DNA of 64,000 nucleotides from a virus. Its lineage: Duplodnaviria > Heunggongvirae > Uroviricota > Caudoviricetes. Positions within the stretch are counted from its first letter, which is position 1, and each line of letters starts with the position of its first letter. Made by a program: the position numbers and the translations under genes. The DNA is taken from positions 1 to 64,000 of IMG/VR virus record IMGVR_UViG_2724679539_000005; one strand, written 5' to 3'. The notes under the pieces are model-generated. The model saw only the letters and a list, made by a program, of their open reading frames with translations, was not told the DNA's origin and did not search any database. Of this stretch, positions 1 to 19,381 are shown one piece after another.

Positions 1-1215
1 GTGAAACTCAATGCCCGTCAAATAGACACAGCCAAGCCAAAAGAGAAGGCTTACAAGCTGGCCGATGGTGGCGGTTTGTATCTCTTGGTAAAACCTAATG
101 GAGGTAAATACTGGCGACTTAAATATCGTGTAGCTGGTAAAGAGAAGCTATTGGCACTAGGTGTGTATCCTGAGGTTACTCTAGCCGATGCTCGGGCAAA
201 ACGTGAAGATGCGAAAAGAGGTATCGCTGGTGGTATCGATCCGATGGAAGCGAAACGAGAGGAAAAGATTGCCCGGGAAACGCAGTTAAACAACACCTTC
301 AAAGATATTGCCCTTGAGTGGCACAGCAGCAAATTAAAAAAATGGTCTGCTGGTTATGCTTCAGACATCCTCGAAGCCTTCAACAAAGATGTGTTCCCTT
401 ACATTGGCAAAAAACCAATCGCCGAAATCAAACCACTTGAACTTCTGAATGTGCTGCGGCGCATCGAGGGGCGCGGTGCTACAGAAAAAGCCAAAAAAGT
501 GAGGCAGCGGTGCGGGGAAGTTTTCCGCTATGCAATAGTCACTGGTCGCGCAGAGTATAACCCTGCACCAGACCTTACTAGCGCGATGCAAGGCCATGAA
601 TCTAATCATTACCCTTTCCTTACAGCTAAAGAATTACCTGATTTTTTCAAGGCATTGTCCAGTTACTCAGGAAGCGCATTGGTTGTTATGGCGGCTCGTC
701 TACTGATTATCACCGGCTTGCGGACTGGCGAACTACGTGGCGCATTATGGGATGAAATTGATTTCAACAAGGCTATCTGGGAGATACCCGCTTCACGTAT
801 GAAAATGCGGCGGCCTCATATTGTGCTATTGTCTGATCAGGCTCTTTCGCTTATTGGGAAGATTAGAGAAATAACAGGCAATTACCCTCTTATGTTTCCC
901 GGGCGCAATGATCCAAGGAAAACAATGAGTGAGGCCAGCATAAACCAAGTGTTTAAGCGCATTGGTTACGCTGGACGTGTAACTGGTCATGGGTTCCGGC
1001 ACACTATGAGCACGATTTTGCATGAGCAGGGCTATAACACCGCGTGGATAGAAACGCAGCTCGCTCACGTTGATAAGAACTCAATTCGTGGCACATACAA
1101 CCATGCGCAATATCTGGATGGAAGGCGGGAGATGCTTCAATGGTATGCCGACTATATGGATGCGCTGGAGAAGGAGGAGAACGTTGTTCATGGTTCGTTT
1201 GGGAAACGAGCTTAA
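1..1215 (+). CDS. int: Tyrosine recombinase, P4-family integrase (start at or just beyond window edge)
   Basis: N-terminal KAYKLADGGGLYLLVKPNGGKYWRLKYR arm-type motif; C-terminal HGFRHT and LAH..Y catalytic motifs. Confidence 0.9.
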   Translation: MKLNARQIDTAKPKEKAYKLADGGGLYLLVKPNGGKYWRLKYRVAGKEKLLALGVYPEVTLADARAKREDAKRGIAGGIDPMEAKREEKIARETQLNNTFKDIALEWHSSKLKKWSAGYASDILEAFNKDVFPYIGKKPIAEIKPLELLNVLRRIEGRGATEKAKKVRQRCGEVFRYAIVTGRAEYNPAPDLTSAMQGHESNHYPFLTAKELPDFFKALSSYSGSALVVMAARLLIITGLRTGELRGALWDEIDFNKAIWEIPASRMKMRRPHIVLLSDQALSLIGKIREITGNYPLMFPGRNDPRKTMSEASINQVFKRIGYAGRVTGHGFRHTMSTILHEQGYNTAWIETQLAHVDKNSIRGTYNHAQYLDGRREMLQWYADYMDALEKEENVVHGSFGKRA

Positions 1216-1357
1216 CTGTATGAATAGACCGTGTTAAGCAATGGTAGTAGACTTATGTAGACGAACAAAGAATAGGCTATGTCTAGGCTGATCCCCGAAA
1301 ACCCGTACACCCCTACGGGCTGGCATAGCCGTCAGAATTAGGGGCGCGGGGTGGCGT

Positions 1358-2239
1358 ATGGTGAGAGCCAAAAAACAAGATTTAGCATGGTTTGATATTA
1401 ATAATTATGAATTTTTAAATGATTTAACCTTGCCGGACTTGATTCAAGAATTAGAGTGGCGCGATTTTTTATTGCGTCATGCAAAAGATGACACTGCTAT
1501 ATTCAAAGAAGAGTACGATATAAAATATGAAAGGATTTTTTCGGGCGATCCTAACCTAACCATTCTCAATGAAGAAGAGGAAGAGGTCGAAGAATTTATT
1601 CGCAAAGTAAATGATGAAGCCCCATCATTAAGAAATGAGTACGATGATCTTCCCTCATTATCTTCAGCTATGGGGGTTAGTCCAGTAACATTTTCAGAGC
1701 TGGCCATGTACTCTTTCTCATCGATAGATCAAGGCTTTTTTAAAAGAGACGAAGAGGATTGCTACCTCAAGGCAAACGCTATGCTTGCGAGTGTTACTGG
1801 AAACCTAAGTAATTGTTCCCCTAACATCATACTCGTTTCTATAGATTTAGATGACGCCACTGATGACGAAATTATTACCAGCCTGACTCACCTTCTACCT
1901 CTATGGCGAAAAGAGTTAAAAGTACCAGAGAGAGAGCATGTCGCTCAGAAAAGGATTGGATTAAAGACCCTTCAGAAGTTGATATCTAATAGAGTGATAC
2001 CTATTGTTGATCTGCTGATTTGGGGTGAGAAGTCAGGTAAGGAAGTGAGCAATCCGATGATTTCTGCCTTGGTTTTTAGTGATGATCCGAAAGATACGCA
2101 GGCTATTAAGGAATCAATAAAGCCTTTTGCACTTGAATCTATAAGCGAGAGATACACCCGCTTGCTTCAGCTTTATGTAAACAAAGACAGAGAAATGAGC
2201 TTGATAAAAATATCTGATTTAATGAGTAGAGATTTATAG
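1358..2239 (+). CDS. Hypothetical acidic protein (293 aa), AT-rich, integrase-proximal
   Basis: Long ORF with much lower GC than flanks; no recognisable motif. Confidence 0.5.
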   Translation: MVRAKKQDLAWFDINNYEFLNDLTLPDLIQELEWRDFLLRHAKDDTAIFKEEYDIKYERIFSGDPNLTILNEEEEEVEEFIRKVNDEAPSLRNEYDDLPSLSSAMGVSPVTFSELAMYSFSSIDQGFFKRDEEDCYLKANAMLASVTGNLSNCSPNIILVSIDLDDATDDEIITSLTHLLPLWRKELKVPEREHVAQKRIGLKTLQKLISNRVIPIVDLLIWGEKSGKEVSNPMISALVFSDDPKDTQAIKESIKPFALESISERYTRLLQLYVNKDREMSLIKISDLMSRDL

Positions 2240-2436
2240 CAAGCAAAATCCTACGTAAACGTTTTAAGTAAATTTCGCGATTTCCGCTTTGAATACGCTA
2301 CTGTGTATTTCAAAGCGGATAATCTTCTCAAAAAAATATTTTATTTTTATCCGCTATCACCCATTCACCGGTTTGTTTAATCTCCTTTCTGTCTACTGAT
2401 GTCCATTAAAGAAGATGACAGAATATAGGAGTAAAC

Positions 2437-2634
2437 ATGTCTCAATCATTTATTCGTCTTTCTGAGGTTCAACGCCGTACTGGTTACAGCAAAGCGTGGA
2501 TTTATCGGCTCATCAAAGAACAGCGATTCCCTCAATCTGTAAAGATTGGAAGCCGATCAATTGCGTTTATTGAAAGTGAAATTGAAGAATGGATTAATCA
2601 GCGCATCGCTGAGTCGCGTGGCGAGGTAGCGTAA
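2437..2634 (+). CDS. alpA: AlpA-family DNA-binding regulator
   Basis: 65 aa, motif RLSEVQRRTGYSKAWIYRLIKEQRFP typical of AlpA/Vis; good RBS. Confidence 0.8.
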   Translation: MSQSFIRLSEVQRRTGYSKAWIYRLIKEQRFPQSVKIGSRSIAFIESEIEEWINQRIAESRGEVA

Positions 2635-3077: not shown

Positions 3078-3911
3078 ATGAACATCGAAAAAAGCAGATT
3101 AATTTCTGAGGCCGCCCCTCATCTGAACGCCTCTCTGGGCACAATTAACGGTAATGAATTTGCCGCAATTGTCCCGGTTATTCCTGGTCATATCGGTGGG
3201 CGTGAAACCAATATTGTTAGCGCAAAAGCGTTGCACAAAGCGTTGGGCGTGGGAAAAGACTTCTCTACATGGATCACTGATCGCATCTCTGAATATGACT
3301 TCACCATTGGGCACGATTACTCAGTCCATAAAACAATTTCCCCAAATTTGGGGAAAAGCCCGAATGGCGCGGCTTACAGCAAGATAAAGCACTCTGGCAG
3401 ACCCGGCAAAGACTATCTGTTAAGTGTCGGAATGGCGAAAGAACTGGCAATGATCGAACGCAATGATCAGGGTCGCGCTATCCGCCGTTATTTCATCCAG
3501 TGCGAGGAAGAATTACAGCGTACCGTGCCTGAAATCGCCGCCCGCTATCGTCGCCAGCTAAAAGCCCGTATCAGTGCCGCAAACAACTTTAAGCCAATGT
3601 GCGATGCGCTGAATATGGCCCGTGCCGAGCAGGGGAAAACGACGCAGCAACACCACTACACAAACGAGAGCAATATGATTTCTCGTATCGTTCTTGGTGG
3701 GCTAACTGCCAAGCAGTGGGCGCGGATAAATGGCTATTCTGGCGAACCTCGCGACCATATGAACGCAGAACAGCTTGAGCACCTCTCATATCTCGAAAGC
3801 ACCAATATCACGTTAATTGATATGGGCATGGAATATGAGCAGCGCAAAGGAGAACTCACCCGCCTGTCGCAACGCTGGCTCGCCAAGCGTCTGGAGGTAG
3901 TCAATGTCTAA
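3078..3911 (+). CDS. Phage antirepressor-like protein (KilA-C type)
   Basis: 277 aa; C-terminal region resembles KilA-C antirepressor domain. Confidence 0.6.
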   Translation: MNIEKSRLISEAAPHLNASLGTINGNEFAAIVPVIPGHIGGRETNIVSAKALHKALGVGKDFSTWITDRISEYDFTIGHDYSVHKTISPNLGKSPNGAAYSKIKHSGRPGKDYLLSVGMAKELAMIERNDQGRAIRRYFIQCEEELQRTVPEIAARYRRQLKARISAANNFKPMCDALNMARAEQGKTTQQHHYTNESNMISRIVLGGLTAKQWARINGYSGEPRDHMNAEQLEHLSYLESTNITLIDMGMEYEQRKGELTRLSQRWLAKRLEVVNV

Positions 3912-4086
3912 GCCAACAGGAACACCACAACCACAAAAACGCTACAAAGATGCCCACGGAGCACTCGTTACTGTCGAAAGCGTGTCTCACAACCGAGTGA
4001 CGTTTTATCGCGACGGGTATCAATCGCCATGCGTACAACCGCTGGCACGTTTCATGAAGGAGTTCGCGGAGGTTAACAAATGCTAA
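3904..4086 (+). CDS. Hypothetical small protein
   Basis: 60-aa ORF coupled to the upstream gene. Confidence 0.3.
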   Translation: MSKPTGTPQPQKRYKDAHGALVTVESVSHNRVTFYRDGYQSPCVQPLARFMKEFAEVNKC

Positions 4087-4604
4087 CCGTCCAGAAGAAG
4101 ACATTTTCACTGGCAGGTATGTCGCCAAAATCCAGCAATATGACGGCAAAGTCAGGCATTAATACAGCAGATACAAGCAAAGTTTATCATTTGCTGGTGG
4201 TCGGAACGGATGCCTTAACCATACCAGAAATCTCGGGCGATGATATTAGCATTGAGAAGGTCAGCGGCTATGCCAGAGAATTTCTGGTCGTAGATGGCTT
4301 TCTCTGCTCGTGTAGTGACTCCACAAAAACCTTCGTCCACGCGCGTGACGTTAACGAAATGAGCGCGATGTACTGTGCTTCTGGTTCTTCCAATAGTGAG
4401 TTTTCGGAGTCCATAAAAAAGAGCTTGCCGTTATGCGGCAACACGGTTTATGGTTATAAGGCACCTCATAAAACGGGTGCCGGGATTGGCGTCCTGAAAA
4501 TTCTGAAGGCGACATATGACGCGCCGAGCGTCTTTTTTTATGTCGTAGGTCTGACTCACCCATTTTTTGGGCGTTGGTGTATAATCCAGCGCCTTTGTCA
4601 ATCA

Positions 4605-4690
4605 ATGGTGGCTCAGGCGGGGGCTTCTTCGGAAGCGCCGGTATCCTTCAGAGCCGGTTACGCCAACCCTGTCTGGGCTACCACCAGCGA
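4605..4690 (+). ncRNA. C4/CI-like antisense RNA (P1 C4, P4 CI type), copy A
   Basis: GGGCTTCTTCGGAAGCGCCGG hairpin with UUCG loop and CCGGTTACGCCAACC shared exactly with copy B at 32687; loop CCTTCAGA is complementary to TCTGAAGG in the RBS of the ORF at 4742. Confidence 0.5.
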
Positions 4691-4741
4691 AATTGGCGTT
4701 TCCGGTGGTAGCGTAACCTGCTATCTGAAGGAGGCTGCCAC

Positions 4742-4936
4742 ATGCTGGCTACTACCCCTACCCAAAAACCGCAATTTATCTGGATTATCGCCGCAGTTCG
4801 CCGCGATTGCCCGACAATTACCGCCAAAATTCATCATATTGCTGCCGAGTCTGAACGCGATGCTCGCCGTTCTCTGGTGCGCGATCACGTCTGCTTTTTT
4901 GCTGGTCGTATCCGCATGGAGGTGGCACATGATTAA
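4742..4936 (+). CDS. Hypothetical small protein, first gene after the antisense RNA
   Basis: Strong SD GAAGGAGG before ATG; SD overlaps predicted antisense target. Confidence 0.45.
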   Translation: MLATTPTQKPQFIWIIAAVRRDCPTITAKIHHIAAESERDARRSLVRDHVCFFAGRIRMEVAHD

Positions 4937-5147
4937 AACCTACGATGTGCATATGGATCCCCTCGAACGCACAAGCCAGATCATCACACTGACAGAAGTG
5001 ATTAACGACATTCTGGTGAGCAACTCTCCCTCACGAGACGAAAGACTGAAGGCGTTACTCGCGATATTGGATCTCGCCGTTCGTGACGTTCATTTCCTGC
5101 TGGAAGGTGGCGAAATGCCAGGAAAAACGGGGGCAACCAATGAATAA
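4929..5147 (+). CDS. Hypothetical small protein (72 aa)
   Basis: Internal ATG with GGAGGTGG SD inside a dubious 355-aa ORF. Confidence 0.35.
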   Translation: MIKTYDVHMDPLERTSQIITLTEVINDILVSNSPSRDERLKALLAILDLAVRDVHFLLEGGEMPGKTGATNE

Positions 5148-5812: not shown

Positions 5813-6407
5813 TTTCTTAATCTTCCATGCAGAAGCAACGCCTGACGGCGTAAACATCATGCACCGCAGCAACGATGGCATGACAGAACGCGTTGAAACC
5901 GTCTCATATATTGATGCCGTAAATCGTCTGGATGCCGGGGATTATGACGATAAACCAGATGAAGGCATGTTTATACATCTCGCTATTGCCAGTGGCGGCA
6001 ACCAGGGATATTTCGATTACACATCACAGCATCACGTGATTATGTGGCGCTGGCTGATAGCAACAGCATTCATCAATGAAATGAGAAAGGAAAACGGCAC
6101 CGTCAGCATTATTGATGACAGTGGCAATCATTCCGTGGTTTCTGTTTATTCCAATGGCATCGTCGCCATGCCGCTGTATCCAGTAGCAGAGCGCCTCGCT
6201 ATGGCAAACAACATTGAGGGCGCAATGATCGAGAAATATGGTGTTGATGTCGGAACAAATAATGCCATCATTTTTTACAGCAACATGTTCGATGTCGAAC
6301 AGGGAACACTCACTTCGTTTGGGCGAGAAGTGCTTGCCGATCTTCACAACAGCTTTATTGCCGAACTAAACGAAAACGGCATCCCAGAAGCACCAGTGAC
6401 GCACTAA
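5805..6407 (+). CDS. Hypothetical protein (200 aa)
   Basis: In-frame ATG MNNFLIFH overlapping upstream stop. Confidence 0.5.
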   Translation: MNNFLIFHAEATPDGVNIMHRSNDGMTERVETVSYIDAVNRLDAGDYDDKPDEGMFIHLAIASGGNQGYFDYTSQHHVIMWRWLIATAFINEMRKENGTVSIIDDSGNHSVVSVYSNGIVAMPLYPVAERLAMANNIEGAMIEKYGVDVGTNNAIIFYSNMFDVEQGTLTSFGREVLADLHNSFIAELNENGIPEAPVTH

Positions 6408-6419
6408 ACGGAGGCCAGA

Positions 6420-8771
6420 ATGCGAAACATTGATCTTATCCGTCAGGTTATCAGTGCGTCTGAAAACAACTGGCCTCATGTGCTGGGCTGCCTGAACATA
6501 AATGTCCCTGACTCTCCGCGCCGTCATGCTCCCTGCCCTGCATGTGGGGGCAAAGATCGATTCCGGTTCGACGACAACGGGCGCGGTAGCTTCATCTGTA
6601 ATCAGTGCGGCGCTGGTGATGGGCTGGATTTAATTAAACGCGTAAATAACTGCGACACAACAGAGGCGGCGCTTCTTGCCGCTGATGTTCTGGGTATTGA
6701 TTACCGGACAACGGAAACACCAGAAGCCACCAGCCAGAAACGGGAACAACTGGAAACCGAGCGCCAGCAACGCGAACAGGAGCGCCTGAAAAGGGCAGAG
6801 AAGGACGAACAACAAAGACGGGATACGTTTTCCCGTCAGTTTGATGACATGCGCAGAAAGGCTGTAAACGGCAAATCTGATTATCTGTTTGCGAAAGGGG
6901 TAGGTGATTTTACATTCCCTGTGTTGCCCGATGGATCTCTGTTGCTGGCGCTGGTGGATAAATCCGGCGCAGTCACAGCAGCACAGACTATTACCTCACA
7001 TGGTGAAAAAAGACTCCTGACAGGTTCAGCAAAGCGAGGGGCATATCACGCCATAAACGCACAGAAACGACCTCACAGCATCATAATTGCTGAGGGGGTG
7101 GCTACCGCCCTGTCGTGCCATTTAATTCGCCCTGACGCAATGACAGTGGCAGCAATCGACGCTGGCAACCTGTTGCCAGTAGCGGAAGTCATGCGCAGAA
7201 CATATCCACAGGCACAAATCATCATTGCCGCAGATAACGATCACCAGCAAGGAAACTCCGAAAGTGGAGGGATCAACACGGGGAAAGATGCCGCAGAGAG
7301 GGCCGCTATTTCCGTAGCTGGCTGGGTGTCTCTGCCACCGACTGACTATAAAGCCGACTGGAACGACTATCACCAACAACACGGGCTGGCGGCAGCCACA
7401 GCAGCATTTAAAGATTCGATGTACCAGCCACGGGGGAAAGGGGCGCAGGTGAAAAATCACAAACAGTCAGTCGGGGCGCTGAATGAGATCAGTTCTGGCG
7501 AGGTGTTAAGCGATGATGAAATTGCTGTCCTCGAAGAAATCAACCGGACGTTTACGCATGTCACCATCGGCGGGAAACACAAGGTGGTGTCGCTAAAGCC
7601 TTCTCAAACCGGCGGTGTATCGCACGTTTTCGAGGATTTATCACAATTTCAGCATTATTTTCATCATAAACCGAGAGTCGCCAGAAAGCTGGCGGGATCG
7701 GCGTGGCTGTCATGGAGTGGGAAGAACTACAAGCCAGGAGGCGTAGGATTTTATCCAGTACCAGACAAATGCCCTGACGATGTTTTTAATCTGTATGAGG
7801 GGCTGGCACTGGAACCAATTGAAGGAGATTGCACGGTATACCTTAATCACCTGTTGCAGGTTGTCTGTGCCGGTAATGAAGAGGCATACCAATATCTTAT
7901 CCAGTGGATGGCGCACATTATCCAAAAGCCTGATGAAAAACCGTCCGTGGCAATCGTGATGAAATCTGTCCCGGGCACAGGGAAAGGCACAACGGTTAAA
8001 CCGCTGCTGCAAATACTGGGGCAGTACGCCGCCCACATTAACGGGGCGGGACATATTTCAGGGCGCTTCAATTCAATACTTGCTAACAAGCTACTGGTAT
8101 TTGCTGACGAAGTGACGATCCACAAGCCGTCTGAAGCTGACAGACTTAAAGCGATTATTAGCGAACCGACGTTTAACCTTGAGCGCAAGGGAATTGATGC
8201 TGAACCAATGCCGAATTTTGCCCGGTTGATATTTGCCAGTAACAGCACACAGGTATTACAGGCAGGGATAAGAGAGCGCCGCTATCTCGTGCTTGAGCCA
8301 TCTCCTGAAAAAGCACAGAGCCGGGAGTATTTTGATCGGCTGTACAGTTGGCTTAATGATGGCGGTGCCGCAAAGTTGCTTTGGCATCTTAAAGGGGTGG
8401 ATCTCTCAGGTTTTGACCCTCAACGAGCGCCACAGACCGATGCCTTACGTGAAGAAATCTTGCTGGGGCTGTCTGGCGTTGAATTGTTTCTTTATGGCGA
8501 GCTAATCAATGAACCTCCGTTTAATGGCGAAGTCCGTTTGTTTGCAAAGGATATGGTTAGTCGATTTGTAGCGTGGTCGCTTGAGCGTGGGGAAAAGCTT
8601 AAAGAACCAGCTGCCAGATCACTACTGGGTAAATCACTTGCACAAATGGGGCTGGTGAAGCATGGAAGACCAGACCGAGGGAATGGCGTGTTCTACGAAC
8701 TACCAGAGGTCGGAGTTCTACAGGCTGCGTTTGCCCGTCTGATCGGTATGGGGGGTTATGATGTTTTTTAA
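6420..8771 (+). CDS. P4 alpha-type primase/helicase
   Basis: N-terminal zinc-binding CPACGG..CNQCG, primase region, P-loop VPGTGKGT (D5/P4 alpha helicase type). Confidence 0.85.
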   Translation: MRNIDLIRQVISASENNWPHVLGCLNINVPDSPRRHAPCPACGGKDRFRFDDNGRGSFICNQCGAGDGLDLIKRVNNCDTTEAALLAADVLGIDYRTTETPEATSQKREQLETERQQREQERLKRAEKDEQQRRDTFSRQFDDMRRKAVNGKSDYLFAKGVGDFTFPVLPDGSLLLALVDKSGAVTAAQTITSHGEKRLLTGSAKRGAYHAINAQKRPHSIIIAEGVATALSCHLIRPDAMTVAAIDAGNLLPVAEVMRRTYPQAQIIIAADNDHQQGNSESGGINTGKDAAERAAISVAGWVSLPPTDYKADWNDYHQQHGLAAATAAFKDSMYQPRGKGAQVKNHKQSVGALNEISSGEVLSDDEIAVLEEINRTFTHVTIGGKHKVVSLKPSQTGGVSHVFEDLSQFQHYFHHKPRVARKLAGSAWLSWSGKNYKPGGVGFYPVPDKCPDDVFNLYEGLALEPIEGDCTVYLNHLLQVVCAGNEEAYQYLIQWMAHIIQKPDEKPSVAIVMKSVPGTGKGTTVKPLLQILGQYAAHINGAGHISGRFNSILANKLLVFADEVTIHKPSEADRLKAIISEPTFNLERKGIDAEPMPNFARLIFASNSTQVLQAGIRERRYLVLEPSPEKAQSREYFDRLYSWLNDGGAAKLLWHLKGVDLSGFDPQRAPQTDALREEILLGLSGVELFLYGELINEPPFNGEVRLFAKDMVSRFVAWSLERGEKLKEPAARSLLGKSLAQMGLVKHGRPDRGNGVFYELPEVGVLQAAFARLIGMGGYDVF

Positions 8772-8800
8772 TATAGTCTTTTTACAAGAAGATCGTTTTT

Positions 8801-8906
8801 ACCTGTACCACCTATACCACTTTTCTAATTCAGCATTAAAAACAATGCGTTATAGTGGTACAGGTCAATATCTTACCTATACCAGACCTGTACCACCTAT
8901 ACCATT
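8801..8906. repeat. Iteron cluster 1 (CCTGTACCACCTATACCA / GGTACAGGT units)
   Basis: Three or more direct/inverted copies immediately downstream of the primase gene. Confidence 0.5.
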
Positions 8907-8947
8907 AACAAACGCATTTCTTCTGGCTGGCTGAGAGGGAACAACCA

Positions 8948-9178
8948 ATGATGAGCACACCATTTTACAAAGTGCGCCAGTTAGCTTCTTCCTCTGGCTG
9001 GCAGCTACGGTTTGAGGGGCGTTCAGACTGGCTACCCATTGCGGCATGGGCGAATGTTGAAATGTGTATTGACGGCGATACCGTTGAAATCATTATTCCC
9101 TGCGTGGCAAGTCGGGACGGCTGTATAGAGCCAACAGATATGGCAGCAGAAATCAGAGAGGTAAAACATGAACAATAA
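8948..9178 (+). CDS. Hypothetical protein
   Basis: 76-aa ORF. Confidence 0.4.
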   Translation: MMSTPFYKVRQLASSSGWQLRFEGRSDWLPIAAWANVEMCIDGDTVEIIIPCVASRDGCIEPTDMAAEIREVKHEQ

Positions 9179-9905
9179 CTATTGCATACTGCAGGGAATG
9201 ACCAGAACGGAGCGCGAAGAATTAAAAAGTTTCGCTACACAGTGCGGGAATGCTGGCGACATCCAAAGTCTGGAACGCACTTTAATTATGATTGCGCACT
9301 GGATGCGCCAGGGGCAAAGAGTTTCATTTACTGAATATGCCAGCCAGTGGACAGAGGCACAGCGCGAACGGAGCGACGGTAATCACTCAACACCCGAAAT
9401 GGCGAAGCAATGGCCTTTCAGTGGTAAAAGCTGTATCAGTCCCGGTGGTTCAGATTATTACCCTGCTGGTGTGGGAGATGAGCCATGTTGTGACGAGACT
9501 GAAATCCGCCACGCAGTGACAGTAATTACCGCTGAATACCCACAATTTAACCTTGACGGACTGGCGCTCCACAACCGGAATGCGGACTGGGAAAACCCGC
9601 TTGATAACCCGTCATTTATCGTGTCGGCGAAAAGCTGCCTGAGATGGATCAGAGACAACGGGATGAGTAATGCCCAGATTGAGAGCTTCCCGCAGGATAA
9701 CCCCACATCTGACACGTTGAAGCATGAAGTGGAGCGATATAACCAGATAAACCACCAGCACAGTGATCACCCGCACTATATCCCCAACGGAGCATTTATT
9801 GCGGCGATGGTGGCAAGCGGCTACAAGGTTAAGCCAGCGGGAAGAATGAACGCATTTTTCAATATTTCAAAAAAGGGATTATGTGCTGCTATGGGTAAAA
9901 ATTAA
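9168..9905 (+). CDS. Hypothetical protein (245 aa)
   Basis: ORF flanked by the two iteron clusters. Confidence 0.5.
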   Translation: MNNNYCILQGMTRTEREELKSFATQCGNAGDIQSLERTLIMIAHWMRQGQRVSFTEYASQWTEAQRERSDGNHSTPEMAKQWPFSGKSCISPGGSDYYPAGVGDEPCCDETEIRHAVTVITAEYPQFNLDGLALHNRNADWENPLDNPSFIVSAKSCLRWIRDNGMSNAQIESFPQDNPTSDTLKHEVERYNQINHQHSDHPHYIPNGAFIAAMVASGYKVKPAGRMNAFFNISKKGLCAAMGKN

Positions 9906-9911
9906 ATAAAT

Positions 9912-10014
9912 GGTACAGGTCTGTACAGGTGGGGAGAGGTCATTTTTACCCACCTGTACCACCTGCAGGCCGCGCCACACAAGGGTTTGTGACATGGTGG
10001 TACAGGTGGTACAG
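9912..10014. repeat. Iteron cluster 2 (GGTACAGGT / ACCTGTACC units)
   Basis: Several direct and inverted copies of the same motif as cluster 1. Confidence 0.5.
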
Positions 10015-10381
10015 CAAAAACAGCGATTTTCTTTATAAGGTATGTTTTGCTCATCTGGCAGACGGAGGTATTCGCTGCGGTTTGGCACATAGCCCAGAAC
10101 AGCAAAGAGTTTTACGAGACTTTTGTAAAATCCAGTGTACAAGGGCGTGACGTTTTTGAAGGTGAGCACTACGAAATTTTTGTAGTTCAAAAAATAGCCT
10201 CTGAGATGTTGTTATGCCTGTTCAGCAAACCATCCGCATAGCTGATCGCGAATCAAATTACCAATGGAGCCAGAAGCAAGGGAAGAACTGGAAAGCGCCT
10301 GCCGTGAAGAGTAATGCGACTCCATAAATATAGTTTTTAGAGTCCATAAAAAAACTGTCAAAACCTGACATACAGAACGAT

Positions 10382-10412
10382 GCCACCAGCTACTGAACGG
10401 TGGCATTTTTTT
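10382..10412 (+). terminator. Rho-independent terminator
   Basis: GCCACC..GGTGGC hairpin followed by T7 run. Confidence 0.45.
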
Positions 10413-10507
10413 GTGCTATTTGTTTCATATTTTGCAATCACAATGATGAATGTTGCGTTTTATGAAACTATAATGACTGTTGTTTTATACAGTTCTAAGG
10501 GGGCGTT

Positions 10508-10681
10508 ATGGCTATTTCAGTAAAGCCAGTATTGATAAGTGAGAAGCAAATGGAAGCGATAAAGAAAATTCAGGAGGAGCAGCGTAAAAAATCAGAGGTA
10601 GGAGTTGCGCCAACGATCCACGAAATTGCTCGGGGATTAATGGATAAGGCGCTGGCTTACACTTTAACTGGACGTGGGTAA
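10508..10681 (+). CDS. Small protein (57 aa), possibly YlcI/YnfO-like prophage protein
   Basis: ATG with AAGGGGG SD; product MAISVKPVLISEKQMEAIKKIQEEQRKK; not in supplied ORF track (under 60 aa). Confidence 0.35.
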   Translation: MAISVKPVLISEKQMEAIKKIQEEQRKKSEVGVAPTIHEIARGLMDKALAYTLTGRG

Positions 10682-10685
10682 ATTT

Positions 10686-12029
10686 ATGGCTACGTGGCAA
10701 CAGGGTATTAATTCTGGTGGTTTTCTGGCTGGCATCGGTGCGCAAAATGAGAATGCGCCAAAGGCAAGCGACATTAACGCAACGCTTGGTCTGATCCGCG
10801 AAAACAATGAACTGGCTCGCTCAGGTGCAAATAACGTTGCTCTGACAGGTCTTCGTGGTCTGGCTGGAGTTGCTGACATTTATAAGCAGCAGCAACAGCA
10901 GGAACGTAAAGCGGCATTCCAGAAAGGTTATGCAGATGCTTATGCGTCCGGTGACAGGGAGCAGATGCGTAATCTTATTACAGCATTCCCAGAAGAGTTT
11001 GAGGAAGTCCGTAAAGGGATGAGTTATGTCGATGATGCTCAAAGGGATGATTATGGCAATCTGGCGCTCAAAGCACAGGTAGCCTCATCGCTTGGTCAGG
11101 GCGCATTTGGCAGGTTCATGATGGATAATGAGCAGGAGATGCGTCGTTTAGGTATCCCTCCAGAAACTATTGCTGAAATGCAGGTTAATGACCCGCAGGG
11201 CTTCCAGCATTTCGCAGGTAATCTGGCGCTGTTTTCTCTCGGTCATGAGAAGTATTTCGATATCAAAGATCAAATGGAAGGTCGTCGACTTGAGCAAGGG
11301 CGACTGGATGAAAGTATGCGTCAGGCTGACATGGAGAACGCGAGAGGATGGGCAAATATCCAGAACGCTCAACTAGACAGGGCTCAGCGAGCACAAATTC
11401 ACTCAGATGAGATGGGATTGAAGCTAATGGAGCTGGGGCAAAAAGGTAAGCCGTCAGCAGACTTAATTAAGGGATTAAATTCTGACATTACCAATTTTGG
11501 CAAAAATTATAACTCTGTCAGAGCGGCGGCAAACTCTCTGCAAGCCCTTAGCAAGGTAAATACTGGCGCTGCCCAACTTGGGATTATCTTCAACTACATG
11601 AAATCTCTTGACCCGCAGTCAGTCGTTCGTGAAGGCGAACAGGTTCAGGTAATGCGGTCTGATGGCATATGGGGACAAATCAAAGGATACATAGACCAGC
11701 TTAATGCTGGAAACGGCCTGTCGCAGGAGGCAAAGGATAACATTGTTAACGCCGCAAAAATCAACGCCAATGCTATGGGGCAGCAGTTTAACCAGCAGGT
11801 TGACGAGTATCTCGATACATATGGAGAAACTATTCCTCAGGGGCTAAGAAAAAGCCTTGAAAGAAGGAAAGCGAAGCTATTTGACGATGTTTCCGGGCAG
11901 CCTACATCACAGGCTGGCACTGGACAGGCAAAAGCGGCAACCGGAGGAATATCAGAAGGCGCAACGGCAACCAACCCTAAAACTGGTCAGAAAATCATTT
12001 ACAGGAACGGAAAATGGCAGCAAATGTAA
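10686..12029 (+). CDS. Hypothetical protein (about 450 aa), Gln/Ala/Asn-rich
   Basis: Long ORF; alternative GTG start at 10674. Confidence 0.6.
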   Translation: MATWQQGINSGGFLAGIGAQNENAPKASDINATLGLIRENNELARSGANNVALTGLRGLAGVADIYKQQQQQERKAAFQKGYADAYASGDREQMRNLITAFPEEFEEVRKGMSYVDDAQRDDYGNLALKAQVASSLGQGAFGRFMMDNEQEMRRLGIPPETIAEMQVNDPQGFQHFAGNLALFSLGHEKYFDIKDQMEGRRLEQGRLDESMRQADMENARGWANIQNAQLDRAQRAQIHSDEMGLKLMELGQKGKPSADLIKGLNSDITNFGKNYNSVRAAANSLQALSKVNTGAAQLGIIFNYMKSLDPQSVVREGEQVQVMRSDGIWGQIKGYIDQLNAGNGLSQEAKDNIVNAAKINANAMGQQFNQQVDEYLDTYGETIPQGLRKSLERRKAKLFDDVSGQPTSQAGTGQAKAATGGISEGATATNPKTGQKIIYRNGKWQQM

Positions 12030-14131
12030 TCTTACCGGAAGGTTTTGTGCTCGATGAACAACCTGATAACTCACAGTTTCCTGATAGTTCACAGCTTCCT
12101 GATGGTTTTGTGCTTGATGCCCAACCAGAACAGCAGCAATCACCTTTGGTTTCACCAGAGGAAAATTCCAGACAGGAAAATGTTGTTAATAATGCTAACG
12201 GTTTCGACCGTTTTATGTATGGCGTTCTCAGTGGATTGATGGATGTTGGTAAAGGTGTTGGCCTGTTTCAGGATATGACACCAGAAGAGCAAGCCGCAAT
12301 TCAGTCTCTACAGCAGAAGTTAGCGGCAAAACCATCAACCGCACAAGATGTTGGTGAGTTCGTTGGACAAGCAGCGCCATTTGTTAGTGGTGGTGGGATT
12401 ATTTCTCAGGTTCCCAAAGGGGCGGCAAGACTGGCTGCCGCCGCAGGGCTTGGTGCTGGAGAAGGGGCTATTGTAGCCAATGGAACAAATAGCGATGTTG
12501 CTTCCGGCGCTGCTATTGGCGCTGTGGCTGGCCCTGTAGCCGAACTTGCTGGCCCTGCAATTAATAAAATAGCTGGGAAATTAACCAAGAAGAATGTTTC
12601 TTCGATTCCAGATATTGAGGGGATTACTCCTGCCGAAGAGAAAATTCGTAAGTTATCTGCACAAGGCAACCCAAATCTTGCCTCTTCGCTTGAAGGGCTA
12701 GATCTAAAACCTCAGAAAGAAATTGTTGAGGCTGCAAATAGGCTTCATGTTGATTCAGTTCTTCCTTCTCATTTATCAGGAAATGAGCAATACCAAGCTG
12801 TAGAGCAAGCCCTAAAGTCACGGACAGGATCAGCGTTAAAAGCTCAAGAAGATAAAGCAATAAGCGAATTAGCCTCTAGTGCTGGCAAGATAATCGATGA
12901 TGTTGCTGGTGCGCCAGATGCGTTAGCTATGAGCGAAAAATATATTTATCAGATAAATAGTAGAATGGAAGCACTAAAAAACCGTAGTGATCAGTTATAT
13001 AAACGTGTTGATTCCGCTCTATCACCAAGAACAAAAGTCGAAGCAAATAACACAAGCACTATGCTGGAAAAAATCGCTGATGATTTAGGAGGGTGGGATA
13101 ATCTTGACCCAATAGAAAAGCGAGTTTTTACAGCAATAAACCCCGGACCAGATAGCATCCTAACGTATGCAAATTTAAACAGGCAAAGGCGTTTAGTTGG
13201 TGATGCCCTAAATAAAAAGCAGGGGCCATACAAAGATGCTGATAAAGAAACGCTATCAAGACTATATGGAGCTTTAGCTGAAGACCAAAAATCTGTCTTA
13301 TCCAATACTGGATACTTGCGAGATTTCGAAGTCGCACAACGCCTTGTAGCTATGAGAAAAAACTTAGAAAGGCAAATGGTAAATCTTCGCGGGAAAACAC
13401 TTAATGGGGATATAGCGTATAAAGTAACGAATTCTCTTCAATCTATGGCAAAAGGTGATGCGAGAGGGTTTCGTGAGATTATGCAAAATACTCCATCAAG
13501 AACATTGCGAAGGGAGCTAGTAGGAACAGCATTAAGAGATATGCTTTCCTCTGGGAAGCGTGGGGCCGACTTTAATCCATCTGGCTTTGCAGATTGGTGG
13601 CAAAACTTGCAACACAGTGGACAGCTAAAGACTTTGGCTGAACATTTGCCAAAAGAAACAATGAGCGGACTATATGATGTATACAAAGTTGCCAGAGCAA
13701 TAAAAAATGCTAAAGCGCATGAAATATCTACTGGTAAGCTGAATGAGTTTGTAAACAGATTTAATCGGGTAACAGCTCCATACGAACTAGCAGCAAAACA
13801 CATTCAAAAAATAGGCACGATGGTAGGCGCTCATTTTGGATCGCTTGGAGCCATTGCTGGGGCTGATATTGGAGCAAGATTGGCGAGTAAAGCTCGATTA
13901 GCTGGTGGAGCAGGGGCGGCTGATGCTGCGGATAAATTAATTGCCTCGCCAGCCTTCCAGAGCGCAGTAAAAAATCTACACGGAAAAGCGCCTGGGCACA
14001 TTGTTGATTCACGTATCAGGCGCTCCCCTCAATGGAAGAGTTTTTTTAACTCTCTTCCTGAACAGGAAAAACGGACCATCGCCAGACTGGGCATCATTAC
14101 TTGGCTATCTAATGATCCAGATAATGACTAG
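12014..14131 (+). CDS. Hypothetical protein (705 aa) with Ala/Gly-rich segments
   Basis: Start overlaps end of upstream gene (coupling). Confidence 0.65.
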   Translation: MAANVILPEGFVLDEQPDNSQFPDSSQLPDGFVLDAQPEQQQSPLVSPEENSRQENVVNNANGFDRFMYGVLSGLMDVGKGVGLFQDMTPEEQAAIQSLQQKLAAKPSTAQDVGEFVGQAAPFVSGGGIISQVPKGAARLAAAAGLGAGEGAIVANGTNSDVASGAAIGAVAGPVAELAGPAINKIAGKLTKKNVSSIPDIEGITPAEEKIRKLSAQGNPNLASSLEGLDLKPQKEIVEAANRLHVDSVLPSHLSGNEQYQAVEQALKSRTGSALKAQEDKAISELASSAGKIIDDVAGAPDALAMSEKYIYQINSRMEALKNRSDQLYKRVDSALSPRTKVEANNTSTMLEKIADDLGGWDNLDPIEKRVFTAINPGPDSILTYANLNRQRRLVGDALNKKQGPYKDADKETLSRLYGALAEDQKSVLSNTGYLRDFEVAQRLVAMRKNLERQMVNLRGKTLNGDIAYKVTNSLQSMAKGDARGFREIMQNTPSRTLRRELVGTALRDMLSSGKRGADFNPSGFADWWQNLQHSGQLKTLAEHLPKETMSGLYDVYKVARAIKNAKAHEISTGKLNEFVNRFNRVTAPYELAAKHIQKIGTMVGAHFGSLGAIAGADIGARLASKARLAGGAGAADAADKLIASPAFQSAVKNLHGKAPGHIVDSRIRRSPQWKSFFNSLPEQEKRTIARLGIITWLSNDPDND

Positions 14132-14150
14132 TGAATGGCCACGGATGGCC

Positions 14151-14576
14151 TCAATCTTTATTCTTTGAAATAGAGTCATTGATCTTTTCGAAACACCAAT
14201 GAAATCCACAAAAGAGAGCTACACCAATATAACAATACAAAACTATCAACCACCTTTCAGTGTCCGAAGGGTAAAAAACATCAATTACATAAGCAACACC
14301 AATTGGTATTAATGCTAGTAATAACATCGACACAGGACGTACAAACTTCTGAACTATATCAATTTTATAGAACCACAAGGCGGTATGTTTAATGATATAA
14401 GTAAAGATGGCTGCGCCAATAATGGCAAAAAACACCATCGATAAAGTCGGGTATAACTTTGCGACAATTAAACCCAACAAAATAATTATAACTGCCTGCC
14501 CCCTCACACCAACCCTCCCTTTAGCTTTGTTTAGAATGGCAATCATCATATATCCAAGACATGGCATTTGGTACAT
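14151..14576 (-). CDS. Predicted multi-pass membrane protein (about 141 aa from internal Met; ORF extends to 14765)
   Basis: Three hydrophobic helices; convergent with the 705-aa gene. Confidence 0.4.
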   Translation of the reverse strand: MYQMPCLGYMMIAILNKAKGRVGVRGQAVIIILLGLIVAKLYPTLSMVFFAIIGAAIFTYIIKHTALWFYKIDIVQKFVRPVSMLLLALIPIGVAYVIDVFYPSDTERWLIVLYCYIGVALFCGFHWCFEKINDSISKNKD

Positions 14577-14699
14577 AGCTTGGGTCGGGATTTCAAATCC
14601 GCCCCCGTTGATGGGGTCGTTACAGTACGCGCATATCCGCTTTATGTGAAACAGGAAGATTTTTCTGATATCACTGCCACAGCAAAACACCAATTTCGT

Positions 14700-14715
14700 G
14701 ACCAGTACGCGCGCG
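14700..14715. repeat. 16-bp motif GACMAGTACGCRCRCG, copy 1 (others at 14753, 14984, 17701)
   Basis: Four near-identical copies within 3 kb; copies 1 and 2 flank the palindrome CAGTTGCAAAATTTTTTGCAACTG. Confidence 0.5.
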
Positions 14716-15338
14716 AGGGGTATCAGTTGCAAAATTTTTTGCAACTGCGTCCGACCAGTACGCACACGATGGCGGGGGATACCATGAAACTGTTCTCTAC
14801 ACGAGACAGAGTGGTGGTGATGTGTTGATTATCGGCGTATATGCGCACAGGACGCGCTATGACGATGTTTTATGCGGGTACACCAATCACATGTATCTGG
14901 TGTGATAAATCGCGTTACATGACCTCTCATGTTGTGCTGGTGGTTATCACGACGTTCTGAATCTGGCTTTTGTCTGATATTTTGCGACAAGTACGCGCGC
15001 GTAACATCGAAATTATCGGATGGCGTATGTTGCTGGCAAGATAAAGTCGGCGTAATACAAAGGCGTTACTTGATAGCAGCAAGATTACAACAATGGTTGT
15101 TGAATTTGAGCGATGTAAGGAATTGATTTAGGGAGGCGCTGATGGCTAAAAAGTTCCACTACCAGCGGATGAATGCGCCAGCGATGGCCGTTTGGTAGTA
15201 AAAGAGGAGCCATTCCTCAATCAGTTGAATACATTATGCCAACTAAATGGGTGGGGGCACTGTGTGGGTATTCAGCGGTGACGGTATTTTTTAAGCCAAG
15301 GACTATCCGTAGCAGGGGGACTCATTTTGAAATATTTA

Positions 15339-15776
15339 TCATATGTAACTTATTATTTTAGATAAAGATTTCCAGTTAAAGAAAAAAGTTATCATTGATA
15401 TAATCAAATATGCCCCTGCGAGTAGCAGGGCATAATAATCCAGAGGCAGATTGCTGACAACAGGGGCAAACATCGAGATCATTGCTAATAGGCAGGCTGT
15501 GATCAGCGTAGTTCCTGTATCAAAAAGCCCCTCAATAATGCCTTTTAGTACTCCGTTACTTTTTAGAGCGCCTACAATTCCCTTTGAACTATCAAAGCTA
15601 CTTAGCATGGTGACTGATGCCAAAACAAAACCAAAGAGAACTCCAGAAATAGTTGAAAGAGCACCAGCAGCCGAAATGACAGCATTGTGATCTAGGTCGT
15701 GTAAAAAATGGGCACCAGCAATAGCCATAGCTAGAGCAAACAATGACTTGGCAGCAAACAATTTCCGAGAACTCAT
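15339..15776 (-). CDS. Small membrane protein (145 aa, four predicted TM helices)
   Basis: AGGAA SD 12 nt after upstream stop; hydrophobic segments throughout. Confidence 0.6.
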   Translation of the reverse strand: MSSRKLFAAKSLFALAMAIAGAHFLHDLDHNAVISAAGALSTISGVLFGFVLASVTMLSSFDSSKGIVGALKSNGVLKGIIEGLFDTGTTLITACLLAMISMFAPVVSNLPLDYYALLLAGAYLIISMITFFFNWKSLSKIISYI

Positions 15777-15788
15777 AATGTATTCCTG

Positions 15789-16874
15789 TTACGTTTGACT
15801 AACCAAATAGTACTGGGTTAGATACCTAAGGTTGTCATTCTTTGCTTGTAGCATAGCATTTTTAACGTCAGTATCGGTCGGATACCCATCTGCTTGGATA
15901 GGCACCATCTTCTTTACCGTAAGAACTTCGTCTACAAGACTTTTCTTCTTTTTATCGCCCTGAGCAACAACATTTGCTTTCTCAAAAGTTAAACGACCAT
16001 CACCACCAGGGAACTTTTCTAGCATCTCCTTAAGGCTTTTTTTAACGTCATCCTCAAGCCATCCCTTTGCTTTTCTTTTTAATGGAGAATGTCCGCGTAA
16101 CGAAATAGTCAGGTGGCTTGAACTGGTGCCTCTGATCATCTCAATCATCTGATTCGCGAACATTCCATCGAGTTGATACTGTGCGGCATTGAAGTTTCTT
16201 GGGATGGCCACAGAAATCTCGCAGCTTCTTAGATTGGATCCAGTTTCGAGTAGTTCTTTGATGCTTTCTTCTTTCCAAATGGCTTCAAAAGAAACAGGGA
16301 CTCCGCGATCACTGGAGTTGAAAAGAAGGAAGGCTAAGTCACTATGGCGTGGACCTAAATGATTTAAAGACAATACTAGAATGTCTGTCTGAGGATAATA
16401 AATAAAGTATGTACGTTCTGAAAGAGTCTTTGCCCCGGCTAGAGGGATTTTCTCTTCCACCCACTCTTTATCTGTAATATATGCCAGTGTTGCGCTTTTT
16501 CTTCTTCGAGACATGAATCCGAAGTAGGAGCCATCCTCGGGTGAGATGTCTAGAAAATGAATTTTAAGTTCTCTTTCACCAAAGTCTGCATAGTGGGTCA
16601 TCTTGAAGTCTTTAGAACACCGATCATACAGATTTTTAAAGGCCTCTGCGGTTAACCCCTTGTTACTAGTGCGAATATTCTCAGAGCTTGTGTAAAAGCC
16701 CACCCTTACAGATTTCAAACTTTGATCTTTTGGTGCCACAGTCATTTGAGCTCCATTGTACTCTGCGATAGTTTTTGCACACCTTGAAATCAAAATCTCC
16801 ATGTCAGTCACGAGAAAATAACTATGGATGAAACCCATCAAAGGCATTGAATACAGGTGGCTTTTGAGAATCAT
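15789..16874 (-). CDS. Hypothetical protein (361 aa), first gene of two-gene AT-rich operon
   Basis: Long AT-rich ORF, no recognisable motif. Confidence 0.65.
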   Translation of the reverse strand: MILKSHLYSMPLMGFIHSYFLVTDMEILISRCAKTIAEYNGAQMTVAPKDQSLKSVRVGFYTSSENIRTSNKGLTAEAFKNLYDRCSKDFKMTHYADFGERELKIHFLDISPEDGSYFGFMSRRRKSATLAYITDKEWVEEKIPLAGAKTLSERTYFIYYPQTDILVLSLNHLGPRHSDLAFLLFNSSDRGVPVSFEAIWKEESIKELLETGSNLRSCEISVAIPRNFNAAQYQLDGMFANQMIEMIRGTSSSHLTISLRGHSPLKRKAKGWLEDDVKKSLKEMLEKFPGGDGRLTFEKANVVAQGDKKKKSLVDEVLTVKKMVPIQADGYPTDTDVKNAMLQAKNDNLRYLTQYYLVSQT

Positions 16875-17225
16875 CCTAACCTGGTGACGGTGGTTCGCAT
16901 ATCCTGATGGATGATCAGTGATTAATCAATGCGCCAAGCAGATGTGTCTATGTGTTTGTTAATCATTGCATGACAGTAGATCGACATGGGAGATCACGTT
17001 ATATAGTTGAATTGTTAGGATATCCATGCACCGATCAACTGACTAGGCTGATGTGCTTTTTAGCAGGTGCCATATAGTAGTTAGGCGGTTCTGTGAAATG
17101 ATTACTGTTCCAGCATAACTGCGGCATAAAGCGGTGCTATATAAGCTATTTGCTGGCGGATTTAGTCTTCACCGTTAATATATGTAGTGACTATTTGACA
17201 GAGTGTTAGTTCACGGACACTTTTT

Positions 17226-17335
17226 GTTGGTTCAAAATGAGTTGATGTTGGTTCAATATTTTAGAAAAAACACAATAAAAACAACGCTCTTTACAAATTG
17301 AACCAACTGAACCAACTGAACCAACTGAACCAACA
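17226..17335. repeat. GAACCAAC repeat array: two inverted copies plus four tandem 9-bp copies (GAACCAACT)
   Basis: Tandem array at 17300-17335 and GTTGGTTC copies at 17226 and 17247, upstream of the PerC-like gene. Confidence 0.6.
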
Positions 17336-17370
17336 CCTTTTTGCTTATCTATATAATCTGAGAGGCAGAA

Positions 17371-17652
17371 ATGATAAGGGACAGGAAAGCTGAAGAGCTG
17401 GAGTCAAAAGGGCTATACCGGAGAGCTGCCGCACGATGGATGGAAGTCATGCTGTTATGCACCGAGGACGATGATCGGGAATGGATAAAGCGCCGCCGTG
17501 AAACGTGTCTGGAGAACGTGAAGCGCCCGCCCGTGAAGGTTGAGGAATTTGGCGACCTGCATAAAGCTGTTACCGAAACGCAACACCGCATGGGGATAGC
17601 GCAACCGAACGGTAACGCCTTCCGGTTAAATGGCGGCAAGAGGCAAAGGTAG
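17371..17652 (+). CDS. PerC-family transcriptional activator-like protein
   Basis: 93 aa with LESKGLYRRAAARWMEVM motif resembling PerC/Pch. Confidence 0.55.
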   Translation: MIRDRKAEELESKGLYRRAAARWMEVMLLCTEDDDREWIKRRRETCLENVKRPPVKVEEFGDLHKAVTETQHRMGIAQPNGNAFRLNGGKRQR

Positions 17653-17949
17653 ACCACCAGAGGGAAATCATCCTCTGGCTGGCGGTTTCTGGTATTTCGG
17701 GACAAGTACGCGCACGCGTAGCACCCAATCGGTGAGGAAATAGCGGCGACCTGAATGGTCAAAATCACAACGCAGCTATCCCCGTAAGCATCGCTTAACG
17801 GAATAGCAGTAACCTGAATCCAGTGGGGAGGGGGTAGTCAAATCTCTACAGGCCTGACTATCCGGGACTGCCCGCCCCATCGTTTTTTTATACCCGCGAA
17901 AAATGAAATTTAATCCGGGCGTGTTTCATCCTTCCAGAGGGTATGACGT

Positions 17950-18135
17950 ATGGCACCACGCGAAATAGCCTTATTGACCATCGCCAAACTTGAGCACGGA
18001 GGCCACCAGCTTACACAGGCAGATCAACGGGAGATAGAACGATCAGTTAATGCCGATATAGCCCGGCGCGACAGGTTCCGCGAAATGATGCGAGCACCTG
18101 CCTACCAGTGGAAGAAGCCAGCGCCGCGCAGGTAG
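17950..18135 (+). CDS. Hypothetical small protein
   Basis: 61-aa ORF. Confidence 0.3.
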   Translation: MAPREIALLTIAKLEHGGHQLTQADQREIERSVNADIARRDRFREMMRAPAYQWKKPAPRR

Positions 18136-18255
18136 ATATGGGATTATTCCACATGTAACTTATGCGTATTAAGCAAATTTCCTTTATTCACCTTTACAGA
18201 ATTGTGAGTACGTCAGTATCGTTATCCTTCCGATTCGCATTTATTCAGGATTTGC

Positions 18256-19150: not shown

Positions 19151-19362
19151 GGCTGGCTGATTCCTTATTGTGGGATAGCACTATCATACAATAAGTGGGT
19201 TAAAGGGAGAGCGTTACCGCCTGATATGCTGTATGAATAACAACCAAATTTCAGGGGCGGAAAAAGATATGGGGGTACTTTTGGGGGTATCTATAAAAAA
19301 TGAACAATAAAAAAGGCAACAAAAACAAAGCTTATCGCCTATGTGTATTGTTCCTATTATCG

Positions 19363-19379: not shown

Positions 19380-19381
19380 AG

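Follow-up and report, generated by a model that had tools for sequence, protein, structure and literature searches.

Which function is served by two clusters of short repeats that lie about 1 kb apart, directly downstream of a primase-helicase gene, and which protein would recognize them? The question is raised by positions 8801-10014 of the stretch of DNA analyzed here (hereafter, the window: 64,000 nucleotides, positions 1 to 64,000 of the virus record IMGVR_UViG_2724679539_000005), whose first ~19.4 kb are an integrative satellite island of Escherichia coli resembling the phage-inducible chromosomal islands (PICIs), with the listed genes all on the plus strand. In the satellite phage P4, the alpha protein binds short iterons at the replication origin (ori) and at a second cis-required site (crr), and crr loops with ori. 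The initial annotation of the locus had read the two clusters as such a pair, an origin and its auxiliary site. Our conclusions rest on sequence comparison and predicted structure throughout, and on that basis it is reasonably likely that the clusters, as mirror-image halves, together form the vegetative origin of the island, for which the upstream primase-helicase would be the initiator. The parts of this reading differ in strength: the clusters are very probably initiator-binding origin DNA, cluster 1 is probably the unit that melts, and a positive auxiliary role of cluster 2 has about even chances.

Two mirror-image repeat units downstream of the primase-helicase gene

Allowing at most one mismatch, the motif GGTACAGGT has 18 matches in the window against 7.5 ± 2.5 in shuffled sequences, none of which reached 18. 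Ten of these matches, among them all six exact copies, are confined to 8801-8903 and 9912-10007, where (206 bp together) only ~0.024 would be expected (Poisson P ~2e-23), so that the presence of two clusters of one repeat unit in direct and inverted arrangement, ~1 kb apart, was confirmed at the coordinates at which it had been described. The matches fall at 8801-8809(-), 8810-8818(-), 8857-8865(+), 8875-8883(-), 8886-8894(-) and 8895-8903(-) in cluster 1, and at 9912-9920(+), 9922-9930(+), 9952-9960(-) and 9999-10007(+), followed by a 7-nt copy at 10008-10014, in cluster 2. Throughout the window, four or more copies of the 8-mer core CTGTACCA within 130 bp are found at these two clusters only. 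The repeat of both clusters, CTGTACCA / ACCTGTACC, differs from the P4 type I repeat TGTTCACC.

Expressed in 8-mers, cluster 1 forms a unit of 102 bp (unit 1, 8803..8904) that starts 30 bp past the stop codon of the primase gene (8769-8771). It contains CTGTACCA-type copies at 8803-8810, 8812-8819, 8877-8884, 8888-8895 and 8897-8904 and one inverted copy, TGGTACAG, at 8856-8863. Two tandem 8-mers 1 nt apart are thus followed, after a spacer of 36 nt, by one inverted 8-mer and, after a gap of 13 nt, by three further 8-mers (3 and 1 nt apart). The spacer (8820..8855) has 28% GC and lies in a local trough of GC content (0.32-0.33). Cluster 2 (unit 2, 9911..10014, 104 bp) mirrors this unit and, when reverse-complemented, can be aligned with it colinearly. 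Its copies of TGGTACAG are at 9911-9918, 9998-10005 and 10007-10014, with a weaker copy at 9922-9930 and an inverted one at 9954-9961, and its 36-nt spacer (9962..9997) has 64% GC and carries the 9-mer GCCGCGCCA. The AT-rich spacer of cluster 1 is likely the melting site because of its composition, and the GC-rich one of cluster 2 points to an auxiliary, crr-like role. Neither cluster has a predicted sigma-70-like promoter or terminator and no DnaA boxes are found within 8700-10100. A search of 8000-11000 against RNA families returned a single sub-threshold match to a microRNA model, a chance hit owing to the inverted repeats.

The units are separated by 1006 bp. The clusters were described as flanking a gene downstream of the primase and they do flank coding sequence; however, it consists of two open reading frames (ORFs) rather than one, orf76 (8948..9178, plus strand) and orf245 (9168..9905, plus strand). 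The former is annotated as hypothetical and remained without match in Pfam and PHROG searches, and syntenic ORFs of 72-76 aa are found in Raoultella, Salmonella, Enterobacter, Buttiauxella, Pantoea and Xenorhabdus. The latter is a conserved hypothetical protein of Enterobacterales only, for which Pfam and PHROGs gave nothing useful, and a structure search returned weak winged-helix matches, in line with a predicted winged-helix-like C-terminus. As iteron binder, the orf245 product was ruled out, since iterons occur in relatives without orf245, and relative L040 has orf245 and no cluster 2. A gene for a single-stranded DNA-binding protein (SSB) lies 3' of the orf76/orf245 homologues in relatives and, given this gene order, both may be replication accessories.

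The primase-helicase as putative initiator

The presumed initiator is encoded at 6420..8771 on the plus strand (783 aa). Based on Pfam, it comprises a Zn ribbon (aa 34-69), a Toprim domain (221-322) and an SF3 P-loop region of the DUF5906 type (515-614), followed by a predicted C-terminal winged helix. Its designation as an alpha-type primase holds for the N-terminal Zn-ribbon/Toprim half, which shares 33% identity with P4 alpha over the first 337 aa (E 1e-40), but does not hold for the entire protein: Pox_D5, the origin-binding domain of P4 (PDB 1ka8), is undetectable, and the homology to P4 alpha does not extend over the whole length. The helicase core matches the NrS-1 primase-helicase (6k9c, E 1e-10). 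The origin-binding domain of P4 alpha has a winged-helix fold (PMC2777425), and the C-terminal 144 aa of the island protein (encoded at 8337..8768, plus strand), predicted to form a winged-helix domain, are the candidate iteron-binding domain.

The comparison of relatives provides the link between this protein and the repeats, as the type of iteron tracks the C-terminal 130 aa of the primase (the helicase/winged-helix half) and not the P4-alpha-like N-terminal primase domain. As an example, the primase of L005 is 89% identical over the N-terminal 320 aa and only 23% over the C-terminal 130 aa, and its iterons are GAACCAAC. The opposite is observed in L039, with 48% identity in the N-terminal and 86% in the C-terminal part and iterons of the CTGTACCA type. 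A distant E. coli relative (48% identical) has another 8-mer, CTAACCCA, yet arranges it in the identical mirrored two-unit layout. Across the relatives, the C-terminal half of the primase is the sole constant partner of the iterons. The analysis thus points to this half as the one that carries origin specificity, and suggests that it is swapped between satellites together with its DNA sites as one cassette.

Exchange of the replication-specificity module

This cassette can be delimited by comparison with EcCIMP1 (L027), a PICI of E. coli MP1 that is induced and transferred by the P22-like phage Kapi1 (PMC11773190). Integrase, AlpA, antirepressor, Ash, small ORFs and the PerC end are found in both elements at 87-98% DNA identity and, among the relatives examined, both occupy the same chromosomal neighbourhood (proA/thrW-yagU). 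In a blastn comparison, the homology extends over 6420-7441 (87%), is absent from 7442-10105 and resumes over 10106-10656 (93%). Since it stops at 7442 and resumes at 10106, the region in between, 7442..10105, with the helicase/winged-helix half, cluster 1, orf76, orf245 and cluster 2, was exchanged as one block, a replication-specificity module. In its place, EcCIMP1 has a DUF927-type helicase/C-terminal half (918 aa for its protein) and other iterons with a unit layout of 3 / 43 / 3, and it has neither orf76 nor orf245. Its TGAACCAAC iterons also occupy two sites, one 3' of the primase gene (L027 18393-18513) and one upstream of perC (9853-9973), inverted and 8.4 kb away.

An orphan unit of the EcCIMP1 type is found in the window at 17205-17334, 37 bp upstream of perC, where seven copies of TGAACCAAC, six of them exact, surround an AT-rich centre. 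As an iteron, this repeat belongs to the DUF927 primase of the EcCIMP1 type, which the island no longer encodes. The orphan unit may have been left behind by the module swap, may allow cross-talk with a co-resident satellite, or may regulate perC.

Conservation of the two units in related elements

Diverged relatives were retrieved by protein search followed by contig look-up, whereas scans of metagenomes and viral contigs with one protein gave almost only identical copies. The segment 8700-10100 itself is present in 140 of 5,426 complete E. coli genomes, in 116 of them at 99% identity or more. Iterons follow directly after the primase gene in nearly all of the more than 30 relatives examined. 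The layout of unit 1 is kept after the primase stop codon in 10 relatives with a primase C-terminal half 59-90% identical to that of the island; these represent eight other genera (Raoultella, Salmonella, Buttiauxella, Enterobacter, Pantoea, Xenorhabdus, Sodalis and Citrobacter) and one further assembly. In an alignment of 18 units, 27 of the 29 (nearly) invariant columns fall inside the six 8-mers, which account for 38% of the length (P 2e-12), and the spacers diverge; despite this divergence, the unit-1 spacer is AT-rich in most relatives, with the exception of L042.

Salmonella, Buttiauxella, Xenorhabdus, Sodalis and Citrobacter retain a mirrored second unit with a spacer of 35-36 nt; that of Raoultella has decayed in part. 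The distance between the units varies. In Salmonella, Buttiauxella and Raoultella it is ~1 kb, with homologues of orf76 and orf245 between them; in Xenorhabdus it is 290 bp with a small ORF alone; and in Sodalis (117 bp) and in a P4-like element of Citrobacter (14 bp) nothing lies between the units. The iterons and their layout are also found in relatives that have neither orf245 nor orf76 (L042, L044, L045, L050). In Arsenophonus (L046), a unit with the polarity of cluster 1 (741-842) lies beside alpA, 5.5 kb upstream of the primase stop codon, and a degenerate unit of opposite polarity (6354-6448) follows the primase gene; this is the P4 arrangement, with ori beside vis/ORF88 and crr 3' of alpha. 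The Arsenophonus element also carries capsid, protease and portal genes.

The 9-mer GCCGCGCCA occurs at the matching position of the unit-2 spacer in the island (9969-9977), in the Citrobacter relative (L045:6666) and in the PICI EcCICFT073 (L051:7189), and is common to these three elements although their initiators and iterons differ or have diverged. Related GC-rich unit-2 spacers occur in Salmonella and Buttiauxella, each with a short local palindrome at the position of GCCGCGCCA.

Comparison with characterized replication origins

The nearest parallel with functional data is EcCICFT073, for which colonies are reported to have grown at the restrictive temperature from a cloned pri-ori construct and not from rep-mutant plasmids (PMC6092414); in the part of that paper considered here, a pri-delta-ori construct is listed with its outcome unstated. 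The region was located by the coordinates given in its supplement (Fillol-Salom et al. 2018). With arrowheads for the copies and numbers for the nucleotides between them, the intergenic region 3' of pri-rep reads < 1 < 40 > 12 < 3 < 1 <, then > 3 > ... > 1 >, and unit 1 of the island reads < 1 < 36 > 13 < 3 < 1 < over 102 bp. Thus, EcCICFT073 resembles the island in having two mirrored units of matching internal layout, with GCCGCGCCA in the spacer of unit 2, and the two share a backbone of int, alpA, a DUF4222 gene and primase, then SSB/PerC in relatives. By the definition of a PICI-type origin in PMC6092414, unit 1 qualifies with its two 8-mers, 36-nt spacer of 28% GC and four 8-mers, and cluster 1 with its place immediately 3' of the initiator gene. 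The differences concern spacing, since the EcCICFT073 units are 25 bp apart in one 288-bp intergenic region versus 1006 bp in the island; the 8-mer, which is TGTCTACC instead of CTGTACCA; and the initiator. The latter is of the P4-alpha helicase type in EcCICFT073 (D5_N, SF3 and Pox_D5, without Toprim), in contrast to the Zn ribbon, Toprim, SF3 and unclassified winged helix of the island protein. The 8-mer TAATTCAG (window 8826-8833; L051:7048) is common to the AT-rich unit-1 spacers of both elements, but it is present five times in the window and the sharing may be chance.

For P4, the repeats were taken from the GenBank annotation and secondary citations. Its ori has type-1 repeats in the arrangement > 2 > 3 > 14 < 35 > 2 > over 104 bp, and this order of three direct copies, ~14 nt, one inverted copy, ~35 nt and two direct copies is found in both island units. 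Likewise, the order of activities in P4 alpha is that of the island protein (Zn-ribbon/Toprim primase, SF3 helicase and C-terminal winged-helix region), and both elements have a distant second iteron region of opposite polarity, with one of the two sites directly after the primase gene. The P4 iteron, TGTTCACC, is absent as iteron from the island. In P4, crr is the site directly 3' of alpha, made of two direct 120-bp repeats (< 1 < 35 > 10 > 6 <) with a polarity opposite to ori, and 4.7 kb separate it from ori, which is situated upstream of the operon, whereas in the island it is the ori-like unit that adjoins the primase gene. Regarding gene content, the island shares with the P4-like core an integrase, AlpA, an Ash-domain protein and, in part, the alpha-like primase, but among the island ORFs scanned no homologue of psu, sid or delta (Ogr/Delta) was found and the core set of P4-like satellites is incomplete. 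It has the backbone of Gram-negative PICIs, with int, alpA and primase all on the plus strand, so that by its sequence the island is PICI-like and a mosaic relative of EcCIMP1, and not a P4-like satellite. The Citrobacter relative L045 carries Ogr_Delta and a P2-capsid-like gene.

Compared by their description in the literature, the Rep helicase and iterons of the Gram-positive PICIs (Staphylococcus aureus pathogenicity islands, SaPIs) are unrelated to those of the island. The arrangement of P1 incA and F incC, in which iteron arrays lie on either side of the initiator gene and the distal one is a simple direct array, also differs from the one observed here, where orf76 and orf245 are flanked and cluster 2 is a structured mirror copy.

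A probable bipartite origin and its alternatives

Under the favoured reading, the C-terminal winged helices of several primase-helicase protomers would contact the 8-mers of unit 1, the SF3 helicase ring would assemble at the AT-rich spacer (8820-8855) and melt it, and the N-terminal Toprim primase would make the first primer. Unit 2 would be bound by the same protein and act as an auxiliary in cis, either by looping to unit 1, as crr does with ori in P4, or by helping to load a second, oppositely oriented helicase. The ancestral units would have been adjacent, as is still the case in EcCICFT073, Citrobacter and Sodalis, and orf76 and orf245 would now occupy the centre of the dyad. The proposal of an ori with an auxiliary crr-like site is retained in part. 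Origin-type iterons tied to the primase-helicase are supported by the co-variation with its C-terminal half, the joint exchange and the layout in common with P4 and EcCICFT073, and the AT-rich centre of cluster 1 versus the GC-rich one of cluster 2 fits as well. As in relatives the units are adjacent and are jointly referred to as one ori, the pair is, in turn, better described as a bipartite origin whose halves were separated by an insertion than as an ori with a separate crr. The expected conservation across related elements was found for the layout of unit 1 in the 10 relatives, but not throughout for cluster 2.

Several observations weigh against this reading. Three relatives (Enterobacter L040 and L042, Pantoea L004) lack unit 2, the Raoultella copy is partly decayed, and in view of these losses unit 2 may be dispensable or functionless. 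The search for second units covered ±4-6 kb in some relatives and distal ones were possibly missed. In Xenorhabdus and Sodalis both spacers are AT-rich, and the AT/GC asymmetry is thus not universal. Moreover, the paper on EcCIMP1 makes no mention of an origin (PMC11773190).

Alternatives have to be considered for cluster 2. Combining the binding motifs of an origin with a GC-rich centre that should not melt, and being dispensable in some relatives, it could be a negative site for copy control or titration, either by handcuffing with initiator bound to cluster 1 or by soaking initiator up. Iteron arrays outside the minimal origin, such as P1 incA and F incC, serve copy control. We consider this explanation unlikely for the island, where two unrelated ORFs are flanked and not the initiator gene as in P1 and F, and where cluster 2 mirrors the origin unit precisely and is no simple iteron array. 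In addition, EcCICFT073 has both units 3' of pri-rep and its authors treat them as a positive-acting ori, and a limitation of copy number would bring no obvious benefit to satellites that replicate in a burst after induction. The same losses in L040, L042 and L004 and the erosion in Raoultella could also mean that cluster 2 is a decaying relic of an ancestral palindromic origin split by orf76/orf245, with cluster 1 alone acting as the origin; this would agree with four intact 8-mers in cluster 2 versus six in cluster 1 and with the degeneration of its third tandem copy. A relic is nevertheless a decidedly unlikely outcome, as the mirrored layout and the 35-36-nt spacer length were kept in five genera while the spacer sequences diverged, GCCGCGCCA is common to the Citrobacter relative and EcCICFT073, and the two terminal tandem copies of cluster 2 are perfect in the window.

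The remaining explanations fit the comparative data poorly. The clusters could have no part in replication and be operators for a transcription factor (for example the orf245 product or AlpA) that controls orf76-orf245 or the downstream packaging genes, as they bracket both ORFs, the C-terminus of orf245 is weakly winged-helix-like and a different iteron cluster lies 37 bp upstream of perC in EcCIMP1 and in the window. This is very improbable, considering that iterons and layout persist in the four relatives devoid of orf245 and orf76, that L040 keeps orf245 without cluster 2, and that the constant partner is the C-terminal half of the primase, with no promoter or terminator predicted in the clusters. 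Finally, 24-nt arms with 88% complementarity (8797-8820 and 9997-10020) and the variable distance between the clusters among relatives would be compatible with the two clusters as terminal inverted repeats of a small cassette, mobile or invertible, that holds orf76 and orf245. Such a cassette is hardly credible, given that no transposase or invertase lies between the arms, that several relatives have the repeats with nothing in between, that the window has no copies elsewhere, and that cluster 1 is always anchored at the primase stop codon.

Implications for satellite origins

Iteron origins 3' of a satellite primase-helicase are already known and the two-site arrangement is already present in P4. 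New are the split of the origin by two genes, a unit design common to P4, EcCICFT073 and the island lineage, and the exchange of the specificity module as a unit, leaving an orphan iteron unit elsewhere in the island. EcCICFT073 has an initiator of the P4-alpha helicase type without Toprim and the same two-unit anatomy, and three different initiator lineages thus appear to use one origin design. The bipartite reading would assign a replication origin to a satellite island widespread in E. coli, in a family, including the mobilized EcCIMP1, whose origin was not described before, and the split origin bears on the role of a second, distant initiator-binding site such as P4 crr.

A broader reading, in which the claims are taken jointly, is tentative and we regard it as rather doubtful. 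It holds that the mirrored pair of ~103-bp units is a common design of three or more initiator lineages, with P4 alpha, the Pri-Rep of the EcCICFT073 type and the Toprim plus DUF5906 type with its unclassified winged helix among them. If so, each unit would load one SF3 ring, with the rings facing each other as on SV40 and papillomavirus origins; the centre of the dyad would tolerate gene insertions, the halves cooperating by looping over distances from 14 bp to several kb, with P4 ori/crr as one extreme of the range. In this case, GCCGCGCCA would have a function as a signal, for instance for priming, for a host factor or for directionality, and orphan units such as 17205-17334 would allow cross-talk between co-resident satellites.

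Genomic context of the island

The island has an integrase gene (1-1215), followed by genes for AlpA (2437-2634), an AntA antirepressor (3078-3911) and an Ash-domain protein (4080-5147), all on the plus strand, as are homologues of P22-type ejection proteins (10674-14131) and PerC (17371-17652) on the other side of the replication module. A gene for a DUF6387 protein (1358-2239) is located between integrase and alpA. The region around it (window 1192-2445) has no DNA match in EcCIMP1 and looks like variable cargo; in enterotoxigenic E. coli (ETEC) H10407, another ORF, on the minus strand, separates int from alpA. The scan of the island ORFs revealed neither capsid nor terminase genes. The ejection-protein homologues (Inj_translocase, E 2.5e-73; phrog_917, phrog_770) fit with P22-like helper phages; in ETEC H10407, the first of these genes is a pseudogene.

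In the region 19382-64000, directly after the island, a second integrase gene on the minus strand (19382-20542) is followed by a prophage. Its genes include lambda-type O/P (28348-30065), a gpA-type terminase (41913-44030), a tail sheath (50347-51891) and a tail fibre (58293-60083), as well as a portal and a protease-capsid fusion. Strain Ec1120 matches the window over 14001-19436 (99.6% identity), and beyond 19436 it has no match and carries chromosomal pao genes instead. The downstream prophage may be a tandem neighbour of the island or a candidate helper.

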